IMG/VR virus record: IMGVR_UViG_3300009602_000064
Span: 1 to 28,143 of that record
Origin: a virus
Taxonomy: Duplodnaviria > Caudoviricetes
Direction: 5' to 3' (one strand)
Length of the DNA stretch: 28,143 nucleotides
Shown here: positions 2,756-26,500 of the stretch, one piece after another
Layout of the letters: every line of letters starts with the position of its first letter
How positions within the stretch are numbered: the stretch's first letter is position 1
Notes under the pieces: generated by a model
The model's database searches: none
What the model saw: only the letters and a program-made list of their open reading frames with translations
What the model was told of the DNA's origin: nothing
Made by a program: the position numbers and the translations under genes

Positions 2756-3987
2756 TACGCCAACATTCCCATTCTTCGAAGCCGCTCCTCTGCTGCGGCT
2801 GCATTGGCCTCTAGACGGGCCAATATTTCGGGCGATACCTCGCCTGCCACCTCTTTCCCGCCTTGCGGGACCTCGCCTGAACCAATCACACCCGGGGAAC
2901 CCCCCGCATAAGGGACAGGTTCAGGCTGCGGTGGAACAAACGGGGGATCAAATCCACCCTCCGGCAATCCAGCCATCGAACGTGAGAGCGCGCCGGAATC
3001 CGCTACAACAGGATCACCGCTTCCTACGCCCCCCAAAACATCTCCTAATCTTTGTACCCCCGCTGTAAGTGCCCTACCTACCGGCGCGAAGCCCTGGCCT
3101 GCAAGATCCGCCGCCAGCCGACCCGGAGCGGCGAAAAAGTCGGCCACTTGACCAATTTCAGGGATTTCCTCCCTAATTCCACGCATTGCCCTAGCTCCCA
3201 AGGTTGGGTAGCCAGCAAGCATAGATGCGGCTCCTATAGCCGGATTCGCCATGCCGATCAGACTGCCCATTACCGACGGGAACCATCCCATGTGGTATCC
3301 CGCCGGAACCGATACGTCTGACGATGGATCGTTTATGGCATATCCACCGGACTCTGACTGTTGGTTAACATCATAGGATTGTTGTGCCGTAGCACCCTGA
3401 CCGGACAACATCGCAGCCGGTGAATATTGGCCAGTACCGTAATCGCTAATCGGTCGAGAAAATAAAGCCTGATTCTCTTCGTCCGCTCGCGTTTCATAAT
3501 CAGGATCAAGCGTCAGCGCTCTAGCATTCAATTCCTGTAGAGTAGAAAGGTTCCAGTCTTCTCTTAGATTATTGTTCCTGTATGCCTCCACAGCCTCTAC
3601 CGCCGCCTCATGCTGACCGATTCGGTCGGCCAGCCCATACTGGGCCATTGTCTCGTGGAATCCCCCGGCCCAACCTGCTGGGGTTGGGGATGGGGCAGGC
3701 GGCGCAGCTGGCGCTGTCGCTTGAACCGTGGCTAATGCGGCAGCCAAAGGCCCGAACTCAGCAGTCGTAGCCACACCAGACGGACCAGACCATGCTTGTT
3801 CGCCCACATCTTCTATAAATGCAGGCAGTCCGTTCGCCATATACTGGCCGCCGCCCGGAGCAACGCCGCCGCCTTGCGAGCGCAGCATCGCAGCCTCTCT
3901 GGGGTTGATATAGGCGGCAAAATGGTCCCGTGGCGCTTTCCTGTTCAGCGCATTCGAGAGCAGTTCGCCGTAGAGATCTCGCGCCAT
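2755..3987 (-). CDS. Hypothetical virion-associated protein, Ala/Gly/Pro-rich
   Basis: 410 aa ORF in the structural operon; N-terminal AYINPREAAMLRSQGGG...NGLPAF motif; 1-nt stop/start overlap with the next gene. Confidence 0.6.
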   Translation of the reverse strand: MARDLYGELLSNALNRKAPRDHFAAYINPREAAMLRSQGGGVAPGGGQYMANGLPAFIEDVGEQAWSGPSGVATTAEFGPLAAALATVQATAPAAPPAPSPTPAGWAGGFHETMAQYGLADRIGQHEAAVEAVEAYRNNNLREDWNLSTLQELNARALTLDPDYETRADEENQALFSRPISDYGTGQYSPAAMLSGQGATAQQSYDVNQQSESGGYAINDPSSDVSVPAGYHMGWFPSVMGSLIGMANPAIGAASMLAGYPTLGARAMRGIREEIPEIGQVADFFAAPGRLAADLAGQGFAPVGRALTAGVQRLGDVLGGVGSGDPVVADSGALSRSMAGLPEGGFDPPFVPPQPEPVPYAGGSPGVIGSGEVPQGGKEVAGEVSPEILARLEANAAAAEERLRRMGMLA

Positions 3988-8193: not shown

Positions 8194-10121
8194 CGGTTTT
8201 CCATCATTTTAAGTTCTGCGTCCAACATCGCCAGATCTTCCTTGGACTGAACGCGCTCTGACGAGGCACGGGATTCTTCTTGGATTTCCGCTGACTTGCT
8301 ACGCTCCCGAGAAGTGATATCTGCCAGCTTGCCTTCCTGTTTCAACTTCTCACGTTCCAGTTCAGCGGCGATCTTCTGCTGCTGGATGCGTTCCTCGGGG
8401 GAAGGCTGCGGCGGTTGCTGCTGGGCTGCTTGTAGCTGCTGCATGATCTGCGCTTCAGTCTGTCCGATCACGTCCTCGAAGTTACGCCCGATCTTCCAGG
8501 CACCTGTGACAAATTTGAGTATCTCGAAAGCAATCGGCGTGATTTCCGGCGCGGCCTTGGTGGCTTCGATAGCCTGAACCAGAAACGAACCCATCGTATT
8601 GGCAAACTCTACCCGCGTTCGCTTCATCTCCTCTTCGTCAGCAAACACGGTACTGTCGGTCTCGATATCGATCTGGTAGCTGCGCAGCTTGTCGCTTCGC
8701 ATGATCTCCAGCATCTCGTCGGTTACTTCCATCCCGGTGATGCGCTGAAGGATATCCGGCTCGTAATTCTCCGCGATCAATTCCGCCTTGATGCGAAAAA
8801 GCTCGCGGATGTATTTTTGGATGGCGTCCTGCCGCAAGCGCAGCCGCATCGATCCGTACTGCGCTTTGAGTTGCTGCGCGGTCGCTGATTCCGATGCCTT
8901 GGTGCCGCCGCCGCGAATGATGTCCGAGATGCCCGTAACTTCATAGATGATCTGAAGAACCTGGGCGCGTTGGGTATAAAGACCCTGAAGCACGGCAGAA
9001 ATCTGAGAAATATCCTCGGTCTGGAAGACGACCGATAACCCGCCTTTCTGAGCCAGCGATGCAAAATTATCCGACGGAACGAAATCGTTGTCCCCGGCGT
9101 TCGCCAGATGCGCCAGTTCAGGCACCGATGAATCGTAGACCCCGCGCCGCTTCAATCCTTCGATCAAATAGGCAATGCGGCTGGTTACGCGGTCCAGTTC
9201 ATCGGCTTGATCTTGATAAAGGGTAAATTCTGGCACCGGAACGGAAGTGTTATTAGTCCGCACCGCAATCAAAGGCGTCGGCGTCGGGAAGAAATTGATC
9301 AACTGGTAGGGATCGTCGTCCTCAGCCAGCACTTCCTTGTAGCCGGTAGCGATAAACAACCGCTTGCGAGTTACCTTGTCCCAGATCTCCCAAACTTCGG
9401 CACGATTATAAATCTCATCGAAGTCCTCGCTATGTCCCGAATCTGGCATCCATGACAGCGGAATCTCATAAGCGTCCTTGAATCCGCGCCCAACCAGATC
9501 GTCGCGAGTATAAAGATGGCGGCGCGCTCGCCACGTCACATCTTCCGGGCGACGGCTCGGGCTTTCCCGATAATCTTGCCAATGCACGTATTCAAGACGG
9601 CATCGCTGGTCGCCAAGCCGCTCAATTTCTTCTTCTTCAACGATATCGACATCGTCGTCTTGGATCTCGATCTTGATCTTTTCTTTGACGATAATCGGCT
9701 CGTATACAACCCAGACCACACCGCGTCCGGGCAGTAGGTAGTCCTCCAGCGCTGCCATCAACGGGCGCGTTGAATCATAAATATCCAGATCGTAAGAAAG
9801 CGTGCGCTCAAGAAGAATCGCAACCTGACGCGCAGCCGGATTGGGATCTGGGAAGCGCCGCCGCACATCGGGCTGAGCCATACGGGCAAATAACGCGCCC
9901 TTCAATGTCTCGGTATTGGCCCATAATATGTTGAAGCGATTGCTGAGCGGTCCGATGACTCCGCTATTGCTACGCTCGTCGCGGTAGCGTTCGACCACGC
10001 GCATGCCGCGCTCGCGCCAATCGCGCTCGAACTGGCCAGCCTGATCAAGCTCGTTCTGCCAGTAACGCGCTGGGCCGAGGAGTTTTTCCTGCTCGGCTCG
10101 TGTGTCGTCTTTGTCAGACAT
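8190..10121 (-). CDS. Portal protein (P22-like)
   Basis: 643 aa; FNILWANTETL, IYEVTGISDIIRG, ESATAQQLK motifs and a C-terminal coiled coil; after terminase. Confidence 0.88.
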   Translation of the reverse strand: MSDKDDTRAEQEKLLGPARYWQNELDQAGQFERDWRERGMRVVERYRDERSNSGVIGPLSNRFNILWANTETLKGALFARMAQPDVRRRFPDPNPAARQVAILLERTLSYDLDIYDSTRPLMAALEDYLLPGRGVVWVVYEPIIVKEKIKIEIQDDDVDIVEEEEIERLGDQRCRLEYVHWQDYRESPSRRPEDVTWRARRHLYTRDDLVGRGFKDAYEIPLSWMPDSGHSEDFDEIYNRAEVWEIWDKVTRKRLFIATGYKEVLAEDDDPYQLINFFPTPTPLIAVRTNNTSVPVPEFTLYQDQADELDRVTSRIAYLIEGLKRRGVYDSSVPELAHLANAGDNDFVPSDNFASLAQKGGLSVVFQTEDISQISAVLQGLYTQRAQVLQIIYEVTGISDIIRGGGTKASESATAQQLKAQYGSMRLRLRQDAIQKYIRELFRIKAELIAENYEPDILQRITGMEVTDEMLEIMRSDKLRSYQIDIETDSTVFADEEEMKRTRVEFANTMGSFLVQAIEATKAAPEITPIAFEILKFVTGAWKIGRNFEDVIGQTEAQIMQQLQAAQQQPPQPSPEERIQQQKIAAELEREKLKQEGKLADITSRERSKSAEIQEESRASSERVQSKEDLAMLDAELKMMENR

Positions 10122-10512
10122 CGTTAATACTCGCTCCGCTTATCTTGCCACGCACCGAGATCCCGGCGCTATGCACGGTATCGGCGCTGCCAGAAACCAG
10201 CGGGTGCCACCATTCGAGATTCTCGCCCCGCGCCCGCTTGATATAGGCGCAAGTATCGGGAAGCCAGTCACAGTTGCGGATGAATTCCGGCGATAATGTG
10301 ACACAGTTCGGAACTCGCTGCTGGCGATCTGGATAATCAGTGCAGCGAATCGTCTCGTGATCGAGCAAACGGCAGGCCAGATCGGTATAAAATACCTCTT
10401 CGGTTTCATCGCTTCTGATCTTGATCAAACAGCACTTTCCGCATCCATCGCATAAATCCTCCCATTCCTGGGGGGATAGCTCTTCAAGCGTTTTTTCTTC
10501 CCAAAAACTCAC
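10114..10512 (-). CDS. ycgN: YcgN/UPF0260 family CxxCxxCC cysteine-cluster protein
   Basis: FWEEKTLEELSPQEWEDLCDGCGKCCLIK...ACRLLD...CTDYPDR...WLPDTCAY...WWHPLVSG matches the bacterial YcgN signature; GTG start overlaps the upstream stop. Confidence 0.88.
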   Translation of the reverse strand: MSFWEEKTLEELSPQEWEDLCDGCGKCCLIKIRSDETEEVFYTDLACRLLDHETIRCTDYPDRQQRVPNCVTLSPEFIRNCDWLPDTCAYIKRARGENLEWWHPLVSGSADTVHSAGISVRGKISGASINDV

Positions 10513-16301: not shown

Positions 16302-16655
16302 ATGAGAAAACAGGACGGGCAGACATCTGGAATCGGATTCCCGCTAAGCAGACGGCTCACTCTTCTGGAGAGGACCATGGACGACGCGATCAGAGAAGAT
16401 CCGACGCTGTCGTCCATGTCACCGCATATGGACCTCACCGGAGCGATTCACTTTCCAACCGACGCCCAGCAGAAGGCCGATTATCGAGAAATCGATGACG
16501 ACGGCGTCGCGGAATCTCTCGGGGATGACCTGATGGCGACGCTAAATCGCCGCGCCGTCAGCAACAGGGCCATTCAGCGGCATATCGTTGAGCGGCTTCG
16601 GGACTGGCTGGAAGTCAGAACCTGTGCCGAGTCGAATGGGGAGCCGAATGGCTGA
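16302..16655 (+). CDS. Hypothetical protein
   Basis: GGAG-6 nt-ATG at 16302; in the operon. Confidence 0.55.
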   Translation: MRKQDGQTSGIGFPLSRRLTLLERTMDDAIREDPTLSSMSPHMDLTGAIHFPTDAQQKADYREIDDDGVAESLGDDLMATLNRRAVSNRAIQRHIVERLRDWLEVRTCAESNGEPNG

Positions 16656-16911
16656 CTTTAAGGTCACCAATCACTGCGACGAATGTGATGGCGAGGGAAT
16701 TATCGAGCGCCGCACGTCAGTGGATTCCTTTCGCGCCAACCCATGCGAGTGGTGCGATGGGTACGGGGAAACCATCGACCAAGTCGAGTACGAAAGCGTA
16801 GACGAAGTGCGCGACGATTATCCTCGCGCAACATCGATACGACGCATTCCCAGCGCCAATGGCGCAGTGCTGGAAATGCCTGTTGAAAACAGCGCCCCAA
16901 CGCGGAGGTAA
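16648..16911 (+). CDS. DnaJ-type zinc-finger (CxxCxGxG) protein
   Basis: CDECDGEG and CEWCDGYG; GGGAG SD before ATG 16648. Confidence 0.7.
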   Translation: MADFKVTNHCDECDGEGIIERRTSVDSFRANPCEWCDGYGETIDQVEYESVDEVRDDYPRATSIRRIPSANGAVLEMPVENSAPTRR

Positions 16912-16915
16912 AAAA

Positions 16916-17557
16916 GTGACGAATATTATCATAGCGGCCCCGAGAATTCGGGAGCTGCATCTGGGAATCACCGGCAAAAGTGGCTTGATTTGCCACAATT
17001 TCTCCGAGAAATCGCGTTTGCAAATGCAGGAGACCCAGGCCAAGGCGGCGAAGGGCCCAAAGATCGCCCGCGATCCAGAGGCCGAGTACGAGGGTGCGTT
17101 CTACAGGCTGGAAGGGGGCGGCTACGGATTCCCCTGCGCGGGGTTCAAAAAGTCCGCCATCCGGGCGGCCAAGATGCTCGACGGCGTGAACATGACGGAC
17201 GCCAGACAGATGTTTTTTATCTCGGCTGACGACCGGGACACCACGGGCGTAGATTGTGTGCGGATTCACGGCACACCGGAGATGCGAACGGACACGGTTC
17301 GGCTTGCCAAGGGTGTGGCCGATCTACGCTATCGGCCAGAGTTTCGGGATTGGTCTTGTACGCTCAAAATCAGCTACGACGAAGACCTGATCAGCGGTTC
17401 TCAGATCGTGAATCTGTTCATGCGAGCGGGTTTGCAGGTCGGCGTTGGTGATTGGCGTCCCGAAAAGGATGGCGATTTCGGGCGCTTTCTTGTCGGTGAA
17501 CAAGACGTTCTTGAGACCGGCCTGGAGACAGTCGAGAAAGAGAAAGCTGCTGCTTGA
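16916..17557 (+). CDS. Solitary Cas7/RAMP-like (RRM-fold) protein, Vipr-like effector
   Basis: GTG 16916 after GGAGG; N-terminal strand ITGKSGLICH, FPCAGFKKS (RAMP 'IPgssfKG'-like), RYRPEF..W, and a C-terminal Gly-rich loop AGLQVGVGDWRPEKDGDFGRF; no other cas genes in the window. Confidence 0.72.
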   Translation: MTNIIIAAPRIRELHLGITGKSGLICHNFSEKSRLQMQETQAKAAKGPKIARDPEAEYEGAFYRLEGGGYGFPCAGFKKSAIRAAKMLDGVNMTDARQMFFISADDRDTTGVDCVRIHGTPEMRTDTVRLAKGVADLRYRPEFRDWSCTLKISYDEDLISGSQIVNLFMRAGLQVGVGDWRPEKDGDFGRFLVGEQDVLETGLETVEKEKAAA

Positions 17558-18030
17558 TGGCAGCACGGGAAAGCAAGATTGCGGCGGCTCTGGGCGAGAT
17601 TGCCCAGGGCCAACCGCTCACCCCCGATGCCGTGGTTGAAGTGGCCACGGACCCTGATCATGTATTGCACGATAGCTTTGAGTGGGACGACACAACCGCC
17701 GGTCACAGCTACCGCGTATGGCAAGCGCGGCGCTTGATTCGCGGCGTGAAAATTGTCACTCCCGAAGGCCAGAAGACCTCAAGATTCGTCTCGGTGAAGA
17801 TCGGAGCGCAACGCCAATACGAAGACATCCGTGTGGTCGTACAAGACGCCGACATGTGGACGGCGGTGTTGACCGACATGGCCCAGCGGTTTGGTGAGTA
17901 TGAGACCACGCTTAACGGCTTGGTTTCGATGGCTCAGACTGAAGAGCGCGGAGAAACCGCGCAAGAGCTACAGCAGCGGGTTACACGTTTGCGAAACCGG
18001 TTGGAAGAAGCGGCACAGCTACCGCTATGA
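17557..18030 (+). CDS. Conserved phage protein coupled to the RAMP-like gene
   Basis: TGATG overlap; LTPDAVVEVATDPDHVLHDSFEWDD...YRVWQARRLIR; C-terminal coiled coil. Confidence 0.7.
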   Translation: MAARESKIAAALGEIAQGQPLTPDAVVEVATDPDHVLHDSFEWDDTTAGHSYRVWQARRLIRGVKIVTPEGQKTSRFVSVKIGAQRQYEDIRVVVQDADMWTAVLTDMAQRFGEYETTLNGLVSMAQTEERGETAQELQQRVTRLRNRLEEAAQLPL

Positions 18031-18035
18031 CCGTT

Positions 18036-18349
18036 TTGACAAGGTGGGGCGAGGTCGGGCTTGTCGAGGTCGGGCCAGGATGGCGTGGCGAGGCGAGGCA
18101 GTCGAGGGGGGCGTGGTATGGCAAGGCGCGACAGGGTTAGGCACGGCGAGGCAGGCGTGGCTTGGAATTGCGGGGCACGGTCCGGCAAGGCTCGGCGAGG
18201 CGAGGTGTGGCAAGGCAGTCGAGGAGGGGCGAGGCAAGGCGCGGCGCAGCGAGGCGCGGCGCGGCGAGGCGCGGTGCGGCAGTCACGGTTCGGCGAGGCG
18301 TGGTAAGGCGAGGCTGGGCGTGGCTGGGCAAGGTCAGGCGAGGCGAGGT
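18036..18349 (+). repeat. Array of 58 NN-GGY pentamers in five units separated by 4-nt AGTC/AGGC punctuation
   Basis: Parsed by hand: units start at 18036, 18100, 18153, 18217 and 18281 (64, 53, 64, 64, 69 nt). Example: AGTC ACGGT TCGGC GAGGC GTGGT AAGGC GAGGC TGGGC GTGGC TGGGC AAGGT CAGGC GAGGC GAGGT. Ends at AATTTTT. Confidence 0.93.
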
Positions 18350-18356
18350 AATTTTT
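18036..18356 (+). ncRNA. Putative guide-RNA precursor (vrRNA-like) from the GGY/NN array
   Basis: Fills the intergenic space of a co-oriented operon downstream of the RAMP-like gene; 5-nt period is not codon-compatible; transcription is inferred. Confidence 0.6.
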
Positions 18357-18367
18357 AAGGGGAAGTA

Positions 18368-19117
18368 GTGATGGAAATTATTAAAATGCTGGGCGGGACG
18401 CTGACGTTCCGCCCCGGCAACCACCGATACGAGTGGAACAACGAGAAAGTCGACCTCAGCGTGTCAGCCGTGGCGTCGAGTTATCCTCTGGCATTCGGCG
18501 CGGCTAGCGGCTGGGCCGCAAAAGTTATTCGCGAGGAGCTTCTGCGATCCAACGGCCCCGGCGATGACAGGTTGGCGTGGGCCAAAGACGTTTGCAAAGC
18601 GCCATATAGAGCCACCAAGTCCGCCGGACATGTCGGCACCGAGGTTCATCGCTATGTTGAAGATCTTGCCCACGGCCTGAATCCTGAGCTATCGAACGAC
18701 GAGGACATTGCCAAATGTCAAACCGGCATCGGCGAATGGTTTGCGTCCAATATTGCGGAGGTTATCGATATTGAGCGCCGACTCTATTCGCTGCGCTGGC
18801 AGGTGGCCGGAACGTGCGACATGGTGGCCCGTTTAAACGATGGGAAAACGTACGTTTTGGACTGGAAAGGAGTCACCGATCTCAGCGCCAGCATCAAAGC
18901 GGGCCACATCGGCCAATTAACGGCCTACCGACATATGCTGGGCGAAACGGGCGAGCAGATTGACGGTTGCCTGCTGGTGCGGTTTTCCCGCGCTACCGGC
19001 GAGGTCGAGGCGACGCTGCTTCGCGATCACGATGCCAATGTCGCGGCGTTCGCGGCGGCGCTGCATCTGGCCCGCTATGCGGCTCAAACAGAAATCTTTG
19101 GCGCGGTTGTTTCTTAG
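18368..19117 (+). CDS. PD-(D/E)XK exonuclease
   Basis: GTEVH...ERRLYS...VAGTCDMV...VLDWKG...QLTAY motifs. Confidence 0.8.
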   Translation: MMEIIKMLGGTLTFRPGNHRYEWNNEKVDLSVSAVASSYPLAFGAASGWAAKVIREELLRSNGPGDDRLAWAKDVCKAPYRATKSAGHVGTEVHRYVEDLAHGLNPELSNDEDIAKCQTGIGEWFASNIAEVIDIERRLYSLRWQVAGTCDMVARLNDGKTYVLDWKGVTDLSASIKAGHIGQLTAYRHMLGETGEQIDGCLLVRFSRATGEVEATLLRDHDANVAAFAAALHLARYAAQTEIFGAVVS

Positions 19118-19132
19118 CCTCTCAACCGTGCC

Positions 19133-19170
19133 GGTGCGGGGGTCCGGCCAAGCCCCCGCGCCACCTTTTT
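19133..19170 (+). terminator. Rho-independent terminator-like hairpin
   Basis: GGTGCGGGGG...CCCCCGCGCC followed by ACCTTTTT. Confidence 0.5.
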
Positions 19171-19196
19171 CCGGCCAATCAGGAGACAATTAAATA

Positions 19197-19712
19197 ATGG
19201 CGGCAAACATCATCACGATGGACGTTGAGCGCATCGATCAGGGGCAGGGCAACGCCCCCGGTACGATCACCGGCATCGACGTAGACTCCGGCGAGCGAGT
19301 TTCTCTGAAGGGTTGGGCGGATACGCTTGCTGACTTCCGACCGGGCAAAACTTTCCAGTTCCAGTGGTATCTCGGCAAGGAATATCGCGGCGAACAGGAC
19401 ATGCTTGTGTCCAAACGCGGCGATGTTAAGGAAATTTTCGGCGCTGTCGCCTCGCTCGACAAATCAAATGGGTCTCAGAGCCCCTCAGACGACCTCCCAC
19501 CGGCCTTCTACGAAAAGAAGGCACCTGTGCCCCCCGCGCCCCCTATACCCGCTCCAACGACGCCACAGGGCGTTATGACGGGATCCCCCACGATCAAAGA
19601 TCGCACGATTACTTGCTTGGCGGTGATGAAATCAGTCATTGAATCGGGCGGCACCGAGGCCGATTTCGACCGCTGGATGGCTAAGCTCGACGCCACGGTG
19701 TCCAGAAGATGA
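19197..19712 (+). CDS. Hypothetical protein, possible OB-fold ssDNA-binding protein
   Basis: AGGAG SD; beta-rich N-terminus, Pro-rich linker; between the exonuclease and RusA. Confidence 0.5.
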   Translation: MAANIITMDVERIDQGQGNAPGTITGIDVDSGERVSLKGWADTLADFRPGKTFQFQWYLGKEYRGEQDMLVSKRGDVKEIFGAVASLDKSNGSQSPSDDLPPAFYEKKAPVPPAPPIPAPTTPQGVMTGSPTIKDRTITCLAVMKSVIESGGTEADFDRWMAKLDATVSRR

Positions 19713-20197
19713 TTCCGTTTTTCCATCTCACGATCCAGGGGACGCCCGTCGCGAAGGGGCGTCCCAGAGTGGCACAGAGCGGGCACGTTTACACGCCGGA
19801 GAAAACGCGCAACTACGAGCAGCGAATTAGAGAGATGACGGCCATTACGATGGCCGGTAGGTCGGCAACCAAGAGCGCGGTTATCGTTCATGTCGCGGCG
19901 ATCTTTGAGCCCCCGCCAAGCGCCCCGCGCACCCGGAAAGCGGCGCTCTTGAAGAGCGGCACGCACGCGATCAAACCGGACCTCGACAATGTCGTGAAGG
20001 CCGCGATGGACGGGATCTGCTTTGAAAATGGTGCGATCCGCGACGACAAGCAAGTCATTGAGTTATGCGCGTTTAAGCAGTACGGCGAGAACGCTTGCTT
20101 GATGCTCGACGTTTTCGAGGCCGAGAGCGTCGTGGAGCGATTCTCGAATCGCTGGCGAGCCTGGGAAAGCGGCGATGTTGCGGTGAGTCCCATATGA
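19709..20197 (+). CDS. rusA: RusA-family Holliday junction resolvase
   Basis: GTPVAKGRPR...YTPEKT...KPDLDNVVKAAMDG...DDKQV. Confidence 0.9.
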   Translation: MIPFFHLTIQGTPVAKGRPRVAQSGHVYTPEKTRNYEQRIREMTAITMAGRSATKSAVIVHVAAIFEPPPSAPRTRKAALLKSGTHAIKPDLDNVVKAAMDGICFENGAIRDDKQVIELCAFKQYGENACLMLDVFEAESVVERFSNRWRAWESGDVAVSPI

Positions 20198-20706
20198 GAT
20201 ACGGGGCGATTCTGGCAGATCCGCCGTGGGACTTTCGGGTCTGGTCCGACAAGGGAAAGGGGCGCTCACCCAGCTACCCAACAATGGTGTTCGAGAGTCT
20301 ATTTTCGCTGCCGGTCGCGGAGAAAGCGGCCCCAGACGCCGCCCTGTTTCTTTGGACGGTCGATTCCCATCTCCAGACGGCGCTCACATTGATAGATGCC
20401 TGGGGATTTATCTACAAAACCATAGCGTTCATATGGGTCAAGCCCTCCATCGGCATGGGATACTGGTCACGCAAGGAAGCGGAAGTGTGCCTGCTGGCGA
20501 CGCGGGGGAAGCCAAAGCGTTTACACGCTGACGTGCGGCAGGTGATCTCTGCGCCACGGCGGGAGCATTCGCGAAAGCCTGATCAGATTTATGCGAGCAT
20601 CGAACGCCTTGTGGGCGGTCCATATCTGGAGATGTTTGCCCGCCAACGATGGCCGGGATGGGATCAATACGGCGATCAGGTCGATAAATTCGAGGTAGCG
20701 GAGTGA
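20194..20706 (+). CDS. MT-A70 family N6-adenine methyltransferase
   Basis: ATG 20194 (ATGA overlap); ILADPPW, LFLW, WGFIYKT, GMGYWSR, HSRKPD, LEMFAR. Confidence 0.9.
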   Translation: MRYGAILADPPWDFRVWSDKGKGRSPSYPTMVFESLFSLPVAEKAAPDAALFLWTVDSHLQTALTLIDAWGFIYKTIAFIWVKPSIGMGYWSRKEAEVCLLATRGKPKRLHADVRQVISAPRREHSRKPDQIYASIERLVGGPYLEMFARQRWPGWDQYGDQVDKFEVAE

Positions 20707-20981
20707 AGGACGAACAGATCAGCCGACTCGCCCCGAGCTACGATGGGTCGATAAAGGCGCGCTGTCCCCAGTGCAGTGCCAAGCGGAAGAAAAAAACCGA
20801 TACGCCTTTGTCGATAACGCGCCAAGGGTCAGAAGTCGTTTGGTACTGTCACCATTGTCAGTTTAAGGGATTCTACGATGAGGCTAGACGCTCGTACGAT
20901 TCAGTGGGCAGCGCGAAGAAAAATCAGCGCCGAAACCCTGCGCGCGATGAACGCTGGCGGCGATCTCATACTGTTTGGTGA
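20703..20981 (+). CDS. Primase zinc-binding domain, stand-alone
   Basis: CPQCS...PLSI...WYCHHCQFKG as in Twinkle/T7 gp4 zinc-binding domains. Confidence 0.7.
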   Translation: MKDEQISRLAPSYDGSIKARCPQCSAKRKKKTDTPLSITRQGSEVVWYCHHCQFKGFYDEARRSYDSVGSAKKNQRRNPARDERWRRSHTVW

Positions 20982-22359
20982 TCGCAAACTCCCGGCCATA
21001 ACTTTCAACTATCTTGATGCTTCAGGCGAAACCGTCAACTGGAAGGCGCGGCCGCTTACCCAAAAAGACTACCGCCAGAAACCCGGTGGAACTCAGCAAT
21101 TCTTCAATCAAGCAGCGGTGCTTAATGGGCCTTTGGAAGAGGTCTATGTCACTGAAGGCGAAATGGACGCGCTTGCGCTGGTCGAGGCGGGAGTCCCCGC
21201 CCATTCCGTTCTCAGCGTGGTTGGCGGCGCACCGGCCAAGGCTACAGAAGACGCTCCCAGCGCCAAGCGTTACGAATATATCGGGGCGGCCTTGGCGGCT
21301 GGGCTGGACCGCTGCCCAAGGTTCATCTTGGTAACCGATAGCGATAGTCCAGGGCGGCATTTGCGCGCCGATTTAGCCTCCATCCTGGGGGCTGTTAAAT
21401 GCCACTGGGTGGATTTCCCCGACACGATCAAAGACGCCAACGACTTGCTGGTGGCGTGGGACGCAGAAAGACTCCATGCCTATTTACGCGCAGAGGTTCA
21501 GGAGTTTCCAATCCAGGGCGTCTACCGCCTTTCCCAGATTCCCGAGCCACCGGCCCTGGTTCTTTGGCGACCGGGATGGGCAGAATTCGAAAGCCGAATA
21601 CATCTATCGCCAACCTGTCTCAGTGTATTATCGGGCTGGCCCGGTCACGGGAAAAGCCATCTCAGCCAGCAGCTATGGGCTCAGATCGTCCGGCAGTACG
21701 ACATAAAAGTCGCGCTGATGAGCATGGAGACTCGCGAAAAACCGTTCGTCAGAAGAAACCTCAGAAGCGCCTATCACGGCAAACTAGAAACGGCGATGAC
21801 CGATTCGGAGAAGGATCAGGCAGATGCCTGGATCGAGGATCATTTCCTGTTTTTGCACCATGAGAGGAACTCCCCCGAATGGGGATGGATCATGGAAACA
21901 GTCAACGACTGCCATGCTCGCTTTGGCGTCTCGGCTGTCAGCATAGATCCATTCAACATGATCATTCCAACCTTTGACCGGCGACGCCAGACCGAGACGG
22001 AATGGATTGGCAGATGTCTGGACGACTGCACCTATCTATCGAAAGCGTGTAATTTGCACCTTCAAATCATCGCCCACCCGGCCAAGCCAATCGGGGCCGG
22101 GGTTAGAGATCCGATCACATATTCAAGCATCGCGGGCTCGCAGCACTGGGCCAATAAGAGCGATCAGATTCTGTCCATCCATCGCAATGCCTTTCAAGAC
22201 GATGACGGGACCAGAAACACCGAGGCTCGCCTGATCGTTCACAAATCCCGCTACGAAGAGCTTGGCTATCCCTGTGAAATCGCCATGAAGCTCGCTTTGG
22301 ATACTGGCTGCTTCCGCTGCACGGAATACGATACGGGCGGTTGGCGGGGGCGCGTTTAG
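20878..22359 (+). CDS. Twinkle/T7 gp4-like TOPRIM primase plus SF4 helicase
   Basis: VTEGEMDAL, DSDSPG, KDANDLL (TOPRIM); GWPGHGKS Walker A, IDPFN, IAHPAK, IAGSQHW. Confidence 0.9.
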   Translation: MRLDARTIQWAARRKISAETLRAMNAGGDLILFGDRKLPAITFNYLDASGETVNWKARPLTQKDYRQKPGGTQQFFNQAAVLNGPLEEVYVTEGEMDALALVEAGVPAHSVLSVVGGAPAKATEDAPSAKRYEYIGAALAAGLDRCPRFILVTDSDSPGRHLRADLASILGAVKCHWVDFPDTIKDANDLLVAWDAERLHAYLRAEVQEFPIQGVYRLSQIPEPPALVLWRPGWAEFESRIHLSPTCLSVLSGWPGHGKSHLSQQLWAQIVRQYDIKVALMSMETREKPFVRRNLRSAYHGKLETAMTDSEKDQADAWIEDHFLFLHHERNSPEWGWIMETVNDCHARFGVSAVSIDPFNMIIPTFDRRRQTETEWIGRCLDDCTYLSKACNLHLQIIAHPAKPIGAGVRDPITYSSIAGSQHWANKSDQILSIHRNAFQDDDGTRNTEARLIVHKSRYEELGYPCEIAMKLALDTGCFRCTEYDTGGWRGRV

Positions 22360-25623: not shown

Positions 25624-25824
25624 CTACGCCTTGCGGAGCTTCATCCCGAAGGTGCCGGGCTTGTCCGCGCCACGCTTGACGCTGCGGCCCTTCGAGCGGA
25701 ACCCTAGCTCGTTACCAGCGCGGATATCCAATCCTCCAGGCCAGTTCTCGGCTTTCTGGATGCCCTTGTAGGCCCCCATTTGTCCTTTGGTCATCGGACC
25801 GGGGAATCCCTTACGTGCCTTCAT
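25624..25824 (-). CDS. Small basic hypothetical protein
   Basis: 66 aa, AAGGAGG SD. Confidence 0.6.
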   Translation of the reverse strand: MKARKGFPGPMTKGQMGAYKGIQKAENWPGGLDIRAGNELGFRSKGRSVKRGADKPGTFGMKLRKA

Positions 25825-26500
25825 CGTCGTCCTCCTTTTCGGACAGAATGATGTTCATCGAAAAACTACGCCGTTCGCCAGCCGATTTAAACGGGTAGAC
25901 CGTATGATACATATCGGCGGGGAATATAAAAAAGTCACTGGGTTTCGGCCTGACCATAAAACTGGCACGATTCAGGAACGTGGGACTGCCGTGCATGAAC
26001 TCGACATGGCCGTATGCCGGATAATGATCTTGATCGTCTTCGTTCCATTCCTCTTCAATGCCGTCCGGCATCTTCAGGTAACCGATGCAGGATAATTCGG
26101 CGTTAGTGTGGAGATGGATCGGATTGAAGTCCCCCGGCCCCTGACGCACGTACCACGCGCTGTGGATGGTCACTTGCGGCCTGACATCGTCTGCTATCGG
26201 ACGGCAGTAGCGCGACGCATAGTTCGACACATATCGTAGCGCCGCGTTGGTGAAGAACTTTTTGTGCGGTTCCAGCACCTCAGTGGGAATCAGGCGTTCT
26301 TCATCGACCTTGCCGACCAAACGACTTGACCAATCTTGGCCATCCGTTCCGCCGTCGATATCGTCATTGAACGCCTTGACGACTTCGTCCGGCATGGTCG
26401 CATGACCTACCGCTGGCCCGAATGGACGCAGACATACGAGGTCATCGGAAGATTCGATGATCGGCGTCTCGTGGTAAACCAGATGCTCCAGATTAATCAC
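25811..26500 (-). CDS. Putative 2OG-Fe(II) oxygenase
   Basis: FNPIHLH...LSCIGYL...IFPADMYHTVYPF...RRSFSMN double-stranded beta-helix motifs. Confidence 0.8.
   Translation of the reverse strand: MINLEHLVYHETPIIESSDDLVCLRPFGPAVGHATMPDEVVKAFNDDIDGGTDGQDWSSRLVGKVDEERLIPTEVLEPHKKFFTNAALRYVSNYASRYCRPIADDVRPQVTIHSAWYVRQGPGDFNPIHLHTNAELSCIGYLKMPDGIEEEWNEDDQDHYPAYGHVEFMHGSPTFLNRASFMVRPKPSDFFIFPADMYHTVYPFKSAGERRSFSMNIILSEKEDDDEGT

Follow-up and report, generated by a model that had tools for sequence, protein, structure and literature searches.

A guide from an uncultured marine phage's putative VIPR system is predicted to target a TOPRIM motif in the primase genes of other elements

We analysed a 28,143-nucleotide (nt) stretch of DNA from an uncultured marine phage (Duplodnaviria; Caudoviricetes; IMG/VR record IMGVR_UViG_3300009602_000064; this whole stretch is called the window below). 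It carries a gene for a homologue of the protein Vipr, a putative accessory gene (vap) and an array of 5-nt repeats that falls into five units. VIPR systems were first described in 2026 and consist of the minimal RAMP protein Vipr, vap and vrRNAs of 9–16 YNNGG repeats, as set out in the main text and supplement PDF of 10.64898/2026.04.26.720920. Unit 4 of the array is probably a VIPR guide, which we predict to direct Vipr to the codons for the peptide EGEKAADAA within primase genes carried by other mobile elements and to silence those genes, sparing the primase of the phage itself. According to the same parts of that report, the NN of each GGYNN pairs with bases 1 and 2 of a triplet of the double-stranded DNA target and the third base, usually the wobble base, is skipped (1-nt-skip rule), with a CRISPRi-like repression as the outcome. 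A preliminary description of the window had postulated a 'codon-register code' for this region, which turned out to be the published 1-nt-skip rule.

Unit 4 and the TOPRIM motif

Read in the 5-nt register from 18221, unit 4 (18220–18282; window letters 18217–18280 read AGTCGAGGAGGGGCGAGGCAAGGCGCGGCGCAGCGAGGCGCGGCGCGGCGAGGCGCGGTGCGGC) presents the dinucleotides GA GG GA AA GC GC GA GC GC GA GC GC, and it is bounded on its 3′ side by the junction GGCAG at 18278–18282, followed by a T. Direct reading confirmed the nine dinucleotides from which EGEKAADAA had been deduced in the preliminary description; the final GA GC GC had been omitted there, so that nine of the twelve were used. The nine had been expected to recur in TOPRIM genes of phages, as opposed to random Ala/Glu-rich open reading frames (ORFs). 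Using the NNx reading GA.GG.GA.AA.GC.GC.GA.GC.GC as an exact search pattern, we found ∼450 matching stretches in viral contigs, 120 of which were fetched and underlie all viral breakdowns given here. The frame was open in all 120, with the skipped base at codon position 3, and the encoded peptide was EGEKAADAA in 108 cases, EGEKAAEAA in nine and another in three, usually preceded by a hydrophobic run or strand such as PVLIV. We take the glutamate of EGE to be the catalytic TOPRIM glutamate. At the DNA level the matches were diverse: distinct 27-mers accounted for 100 of the 120, and the skipped positions took all four bases.

For 58 of the 120 viral loci the ORFs were searched with Pfam, and 50 of these were assigned a primase or helicase family, the families counted being DnaG-type or primase-helicase Zn-ribbon, Toprim, VapE-like, DUF5906, D5_N, DUF927, DnaB_C and AAA_25/AAA_16. 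A direct Toprim match started at the motif in 19 of the 58 ORFs, and a Zn-ribbon was present in 20; at one locus (L005), for example, the motif occupies residues 388–396 and the Toprim match spans residues 384–454. Four further ORFs had DUF6371 alone, and the last four had no family or another one, among them a scaffold protein with DGDNAADAA. The TOPRIM domain on one of the best-matching contigs (G007) matched, among cultured phages, genes with the annotation DNA primase/helicase from phages of Pseudomonas, Burkholderia, Verrucomicrobia and others. The viral matches thus concentrate in TOPRIM genes (EGEKAA[DE]AA in 117 of 120) and did not scatter over random Ala/Glu-rich ORFs, and the earlier statement that EGEKAADAA is a common phage variant of the TOPRIM motif is borne out by its share of the fetched matches. 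The architectures that bear the motif include VapE, D5_N/DUF5906, DUF927 and fusions with DnaB and AAA_25, and they come from many bacterial phyla. Because VapE-like and D5_N/DUF5906 architectures are characteristic not only of phages but also of satellites and integrative elements, the rival could be a satellite. Bacterial genomes contained the pattern in ∼990 stretches from very diverse taxa; among the 120 fetched for the bacterial breakdown, 71 encoded EGEKAADAA and seven EGEKAAEAA.

The order of the dinucleotides mattered. Reversing the same nine gave 18 viral stretches encoding scattered peptides, and a second order gave 17, so that the actual string had ∼25 times more viral matches than two orders of the same composition, more than expected by chance. 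We also built a shuffle null on G007, which was picked because it holds the match: the observed 18 of 18 bases compared with a maximum of 17 among 500 base-shuffled nine-repeat guides, whereas the observed 21/24 was also attained by one of 500 twelve-repeat shuffles. The motif spelled by unit 4 is conserved and unusually abundant, and by rough reasoning a guide is unlikely to spell such a motif by accident.

The primase/helicase of the phage itself has EGEMDALAL at the site homologous to the unit 4 target (Table 1). As stated in the preliminary description, this motif matches the guide in 5/9 dinucleotides; this corresponds to 12/18 bases, or 16/24 (67%) over twelve repeats. With a threshold of 80% NN match for self-targets, as used in 10.64898/2026.04.26.720920, none was found for any of the five units within the window outside the array, the best value per unit being 62–71%. 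On viral TOPRIM targets the best value of unit 4 over twelve repeats, 87.5%, lies above this threshold. The proposed sparing of self therefore holds for the resident primase and, for all units, throughout the window.

Several observations weigh against unit 4 being a guide aimed at primase genes. The first nine repeats match in 18/18 bases and the best match over all twelve is 21/24 (87.5%; 19 of the 120 viral loci), the exact match covering only nine of the twelve repeats and stopping after the ninth. In the metagenome collection, the exact twelve-repeat pattern was confined to two near-identical contigs, where it lies in an Ala/Glu-rich linker of a GH85 glycosidase ORF; one bacterial metagenome-assembled genome has a 24/24 match, again in a non-TOPRIM ORF. 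Of the 120 bacterial matches fetched, the other 42 encode D/E and K/N variants, most of which fall in unrelated ORFs. The sequence of unit 4 repeats itself internally (period 15 with 79% matches according to Tandem Repeats Finder, TRF), and a caveat about low complexity entered in the preliminary description was fair: the 3′ half of the unit is of low complexity, and the last three repeats add nothing to the TOPRIM match. Repeats 1 and 2 have the non-canonical scaffolds GTC and GGA instead of GGY. Furthermore, CAGTCGAGG opens unit 2 as well as unit 4 (18099–18111 and 18216–18229), so that the first GA may be part of a junction variant or of a 5′ element common to both units and not of the free guide; GTCGAGG also recurs in one relative (L148).

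The other guides likewise count against this reading. No target could be identified for units 1, 2, 3 and 5, for which exact scans of viral sequences with the first 9–10 dinucleotides gave 1, 0, 0 and 2 stretches, respectively. The 12-dinucleotide pattern of unit 3, allowing up to three mismatches, occurred in 0 of 50 target-bearing virus records, which are mostly fragments. There was also no convergence of guides, as units 1, 2, 3 and 5 reached no more than 65–75% on eight fully fetched target contigs. Finally, in a survey of 334 nine-repeat windows from the present array and 24 other loci, the only related-array guides that matched primase loci were unit 4 and its copies in two near relatives (L144 and L147), plus one single match from the Escherichia phage SUSP1, the carrier of an experimentally studied VIPR system. 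The two stretches found with unit 5 were considered as its target and rejected: they are AT-rich, show no extension (20/28) and look like chance.

Unit 4 could thus be a real guide whose TOPRIM match is a low-complexity coincidence produced by GGCGA/GGCGC slippage, its true target lying elsewhere or the unit being degenerate filler. The 15-nt sub-period within the unit, the failure of the last three repeats to extend the match and the restriction of exact twelve-repeat matches to Ala/Glu-rich stretches outside TOPRIM would be in line with this, as would the fact that GA is the commonest NN across the array and the single twelve-repeat shuffle in 500 that also scored 21/24 on G007. We nevertheless consider a coincidence unlikely, given the ∼25-fold excess over reordered controls, the 117 of 120 viral matches that fall on one motif of one domain and the fact that 0/500 nine-repeat shuffles reached 18/18. 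The sub-period can be accounted for by the target peptide, which itself has an xAA-xAA rhythm. Moreover, the 27-bp exact footprint is ample when compared with SUSP1 vrRNA4, whose footprint on the active-site codons of the F5 satellite recombinase is reported as 18 bp and six repeats in the main text of 10.64898/2026.10.15.759431.

The two contigs whose primase genes are among the best unit 4 matches (21/24), G005 and G007, each have a vipr homologue and a GGCNN array with a 7-nt junction, GGTACRT, of their own (G005, 9678–9910, minus strand; G007, 20551–20860, minus strand). Reciprocal targeting was rejected, as the guides of these contigs matched the window in 15/18 at best, which is equal to the reversed control (15/18). 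The presence of these systems on the best-matching target contigs is what one might expect if unit 4 recognised EGEKAADAA-coding DNA while serving as a decoy or regulating some element on which the phage depends, for instance by soaking up the Vipr of a competitor, a role described for solo vrRNAs borne by satellites, and vrRNAs that redirect the VIPR machinery of another element are reported in the main text of 10.64898/2026.10.15.759431. Such a role seems very improbable here: unit 4 is not solitary and lies within an array beside its own vipr, the junctions differ (GGTACRT versus CAGT), the Vipr of G005 and G007 is only 39% identical to that of the window over 70 residues, and the reversed control performed as well as their actual guides.

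The Vipr homologue, the accessory gene and the array

The window Vipr is 39% identical to gp57 of mycobacteriophage Quico (E 2e-41), the product of the gene behind the array of that phage. A tblastn search of cultured phages with the window Vipr returned 150 records, SUSP1 included; records with Vipr homologues include 27 from Mycobacterium and five from Gordonia phages. The SUSP1 match is the gene that lies between an upstream and a downstream GGTNN array (pairwise E 6e-14), with BLAST similarity confined to the C-terminal 57 residues. A profile built from the window Vipr and 15 relatives from viral contigs matched the PDB entry 36pp_D, 'SUSP1 Vipr protein' (E 1.6e-11), over residues 2–183 of the chain. 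In this alignment, H46, R159, D198, W199 and R200 of the window protein correspond to H17, R138, D177, W178 and R179 of SUSP1 Vipr, given as the residues that contact the GGY (G1, G2, Y3) in the cryo-EM account (10.64898/2026.04.26.720927). Across 16 relatives, H46, R159 and R200 are invariant and W199 nearly so, and a G-loop motif, GVGDWRP, can be read in the window Vipr.

The product of the second gene is 37% identical to Quico gp58, encoded by the gene that follows vipr there (E 5e-19), and it matched phrog_15946, a family of unknown function. A pairwise comparison revealed no similarity to SUSP1 vap1, and a Pfam search returned no family. With the Vipr homologue, a putative accessory gene and the array in place, the locus is very probably a VIPR system as judged from its sequence.

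The array, made of G-rich 5-nt repeats, fills the 340-bp gap between the ORF at 17554–18030 and an exonuclease gene. Its five units have ∼10–14 repeats each, unit 4 having twelve. TRF found a period of 5 with 31.4 copies at 18194–18348 and an extra 15-nt sub-period at 18233–18314. Of the 39 spacings between successive GGC triplets in 18030–18360, 23 were exactly 5 and 34 a multiple of 5, and the remaining five (9, 13, 4, 14 and 14) are the register shifts. The junction at 18150 reads GGCA/GGC (the slash marks the boundary), and the other junctions read GGCAG/T, so that CAGT is present in three of four. GGC is more frequent than GGT. The array lacks the ∼40-nt conserved 3′ tail, and neighbouring guides are only 4 nt apart; an Rfam search returned no match.

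Three overlapping ORFs (17891–18358, 18061–18306 and 18162–18368) leave three frames open across the G-rich repeats, and the annotated start of gene 52 of mycobacteriophage Philus falls within the corresponding array. A protein-coding role, or one at the level of DNA structure (for example, an origin, or a bent or G-rich region), might be read from this. We regard it as extremely improbable, since a 5-nt period is incompatible with codons, a 10-nt loss in unit 5 of a close relative (L147) would shift any frame, the Quico counterpart of the Philus gene is annotated from an ATG behind the array, and such an array accompanies a Vipr homologue in phages unrelated to one another, whether before or after the gene. 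A TRAP-like ring protein binding triplets spaced by 2 nt, and an R-loop origin, were dropped in view of the Vipr homology and the published VIPR system.

By analogy with SUSP1, the array would be transcribed together with vipr and vap (a promoter scan of 16600–18500 found no promoter), and the transcript would be cleaved at the CAGT/CAGG junctions to give the guides. Each repeat would then be covered by one Vipr protomer, which would hide GGY and present NN; since the guide reads in the coding-strand sense, the resulting filament would pair with the template strand of the target gene. The R-loop triplex formed in this way would be expected to block transcription of the primase gene and of sequences downstream of it. 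Skipping the wobble base would allow a single guide to cover synonymous versions of the motif. Unit 4 may even be a broad-spectrum weapon, although we would lean slightly against this: by reading codon positions 1 and 2 of a shared catalytic motif, one vrRNA would silence a replication gene in hundreds of phages, satellites and integrative elements unrelated to one another, with the carrier immune through a different TOPRIM variant.

Table 1. Coordinates of the features discussed in the text
Feature	Coordinates	Strand	Remarks
vipr	16859..17557	+	232 aa from first ATG; relatives suggest that the conserved part starts near residue 20
vap (putative accessory gene)	17554..18030	+	likely start ATG 17557, overlapping the vipr stop
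vrRNA array	18040..18350	+	∼55 GGYNN repeats, five guides, 4-nt CAGT/CAGG separators that shift the register
Unit 4	18220..18282	+	12 YNNGG repeats ending in CAG; first NN at 18221
Resident primase/helicase	20878..22359	+	Toprim and DnaB_C/AAA_25 (Pfam, PHROG)
Resident TOPRIM motif EGEMDALAL	21154..21180	+	GAAGGCGAAATGGACGCGCTTGCGCTG; site homologous to the unit 4 target
Cluster F array, Philus (L001)	3000-3250		intergenic GGCNN array, two genes downstream
Cluster F array, Quico (L002)	2965-3225		intergenic GGCNN array, two genes downstream

Related loci and neighbouring genes

A GGY-NN array adjoins vipr in 17 of 21 related loci on viral contigs, with different NN. Of the four loci without an array, three end at the contig edge exactly at vipr, and one (L159) has no array within 2.5 kb. 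Across unrelated phages, arrays lie on either side of the vipr homologue. The scaffold is kept where the guides are not: L145, whose Vipr is 81% identical to that of the window, retains GGY and the GGCAGT junction and has zero guides in common with the window, and the same holds for more distant loci. The dinucleotides of unit 4 are unchanged in L144 and L147, where Vipr is 100% identical; compared with the window, L147 differs in one scaffold base in addition to the 10-nt loss in unit 5.

Contigs from four further marine metagenome runs match both flanks of the array and break within 18040–18350. Their loose ends enter other GGY-NN guides, for example after 18103/18107, and 18256–18327 is spanned by none of these contigs. 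Co-occurring strains seem to differ in guide content. The stretch itself is present in ∼20 marine or seawater metagenome DNA runs, with no RNA run among those listed. The closest cultured relatives of the phage (Bradyrhizobium, Myxococcus, Rhizobium, Stenotrophomonas and Brucella phages) are only ∼30% identical, too distant for a host to be named.

Against cultured phages, a BLASTN search with 17000–19500 gave only 27 records, all of them Mycobacterium phages and all matched through the repeat region. In Cluster F mycobacteriophages (Cheoctovirus), a VIPR locus that has escaped annotation lies between the antirepressor and xis; it is arranged as array, vipr, vap. The annotated gene 52 of Philus starts inside this array, and its Quico counterpart starts from an ATG behind it.

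Downstream of the window array follow a gene for a PD-(D/E)XK exonuclease (18368–19117) and then ORFs at 19709–20197 and 20095–20706 (RusA resolvase, MT-A70 DNA methyltransferase). The exonuclease probably stands outside the VIPR system, because the genes that follow the VIPR locus in Cluster F are annotated otherwise (Xis/excise, hypothetical proteins). Elsewhere in the window, a gene for a protein with a CxxCxxCC (putative zinc- or iron-chelating) domain lies between the portal and terminase genes (10114–10512, minus strand), and the late region contains a gene of the 2OG-Fe(II) oxygenase family (phrog_81; 25811–26500, minus strand).

Comparison with known systems

The kind of system, its code and the aiming of guides at active-site codons are already in print. 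Natural VIPR targets are known for few clades and comprise a satellite recombinase, prophage regulators and other vipr genes. Neither the main text and supplement PDF of 10.64898/2026.04.26.720920 nor the main text of 10.64898/2026.10.15.759431 contains the word 'primase', the target tables (data S3) lying outside this comparison. The window adds a VIPR system, from a marine phage that is uncultured, with tail-less guides that abut one another, a guide whose predicted footprint is a primase TOPRIM motif, and an example of wobble skipping in which one guide covers ∼100 DNA versions of a single peptide motif.

SUSP1 has a type II VIPR system (SUSP1 / P. fulva clade; 10.64898/2026.04.26.720920; PDB 36pp), with which the window shares the order vipr, vap and downstream array, a homologous Vipr that keeps the GGY-contact residues, GGYNN repeats numbering ∼12 per guide and an NNx target in which the wobble base is skipped. 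Unlike SUSP1, the window has more GGC than GGT, no ∼40-nt 3′ tail or pseudoknot following each repeat tract and a vap unrelated to vap1. We did not file the window system as type II, because its guides are separated by 4 nt, Rfam found no match and its vap does not resemble vap1; it fits the description of 'staggered' arrays, whose guides adjoin and overlap by 1 nt according to the legend of fig. S18 (10.64898/2026.04.26.720920, PMC13142463). As in the arrays of that legend, the guides are tail-less and the register shifts by 1 nt at each boundary (GGCA/GGC at 18150), whereas three of the four window junctions carry CAGT and not the overlapping CAGG.

With SUSP1 vrRNA4, as presented in the main text that reports it, unit 4 shares a footprint on the codons of a catalytic core, read at positions 1 and 2, such that synonymous change would give no escape. 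In contrast to vrRNA4, which is directed against one satellite family and was established by experiment, unit 4 has as its predicted target a primase TOPRIM motif found across very diverse elements and known from sequence alone. VIPR also resembles Class 1 CRISPR (Cascade, with its Cas7 backbone) used as CRISPRi, in that an RNA-guided RAMP filament on DNA blocks transcription and thumbs interrupt the pairing periodically. Unlike Class 1 CRISPR, it has no CRISPR repeats, spacer-acquisition genes or PAM, and pairing involves 2 in 5 positions of the RNA and 2 in 3 of the DNA, compared with 5 in 6.

The closest cultured relatives of the window Vipr and vap are in Cluster F mycobacteriophages (Quico, Philus, Donkeykong and others) and some Gordonia phages, and the GGCNN-type arrays of Cluster F, the only BLASTN matches of the window array, also fit the staggered description as far as the fig. 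S18 legend gives it. These loci are absent from the main text and supplement PDF of 10.64898/2026.04.26.720920. They differ from the window in their order (array, vipr, vap), their junction (GGCAG/GC), their actinobacterial hosts and their guides, which miss TOPRIM loci. The window thereby links the experimentally studied SUSP1 system to unannotated loci of well-known mycobacteriophages, which could be tested in a standard laboratory host.

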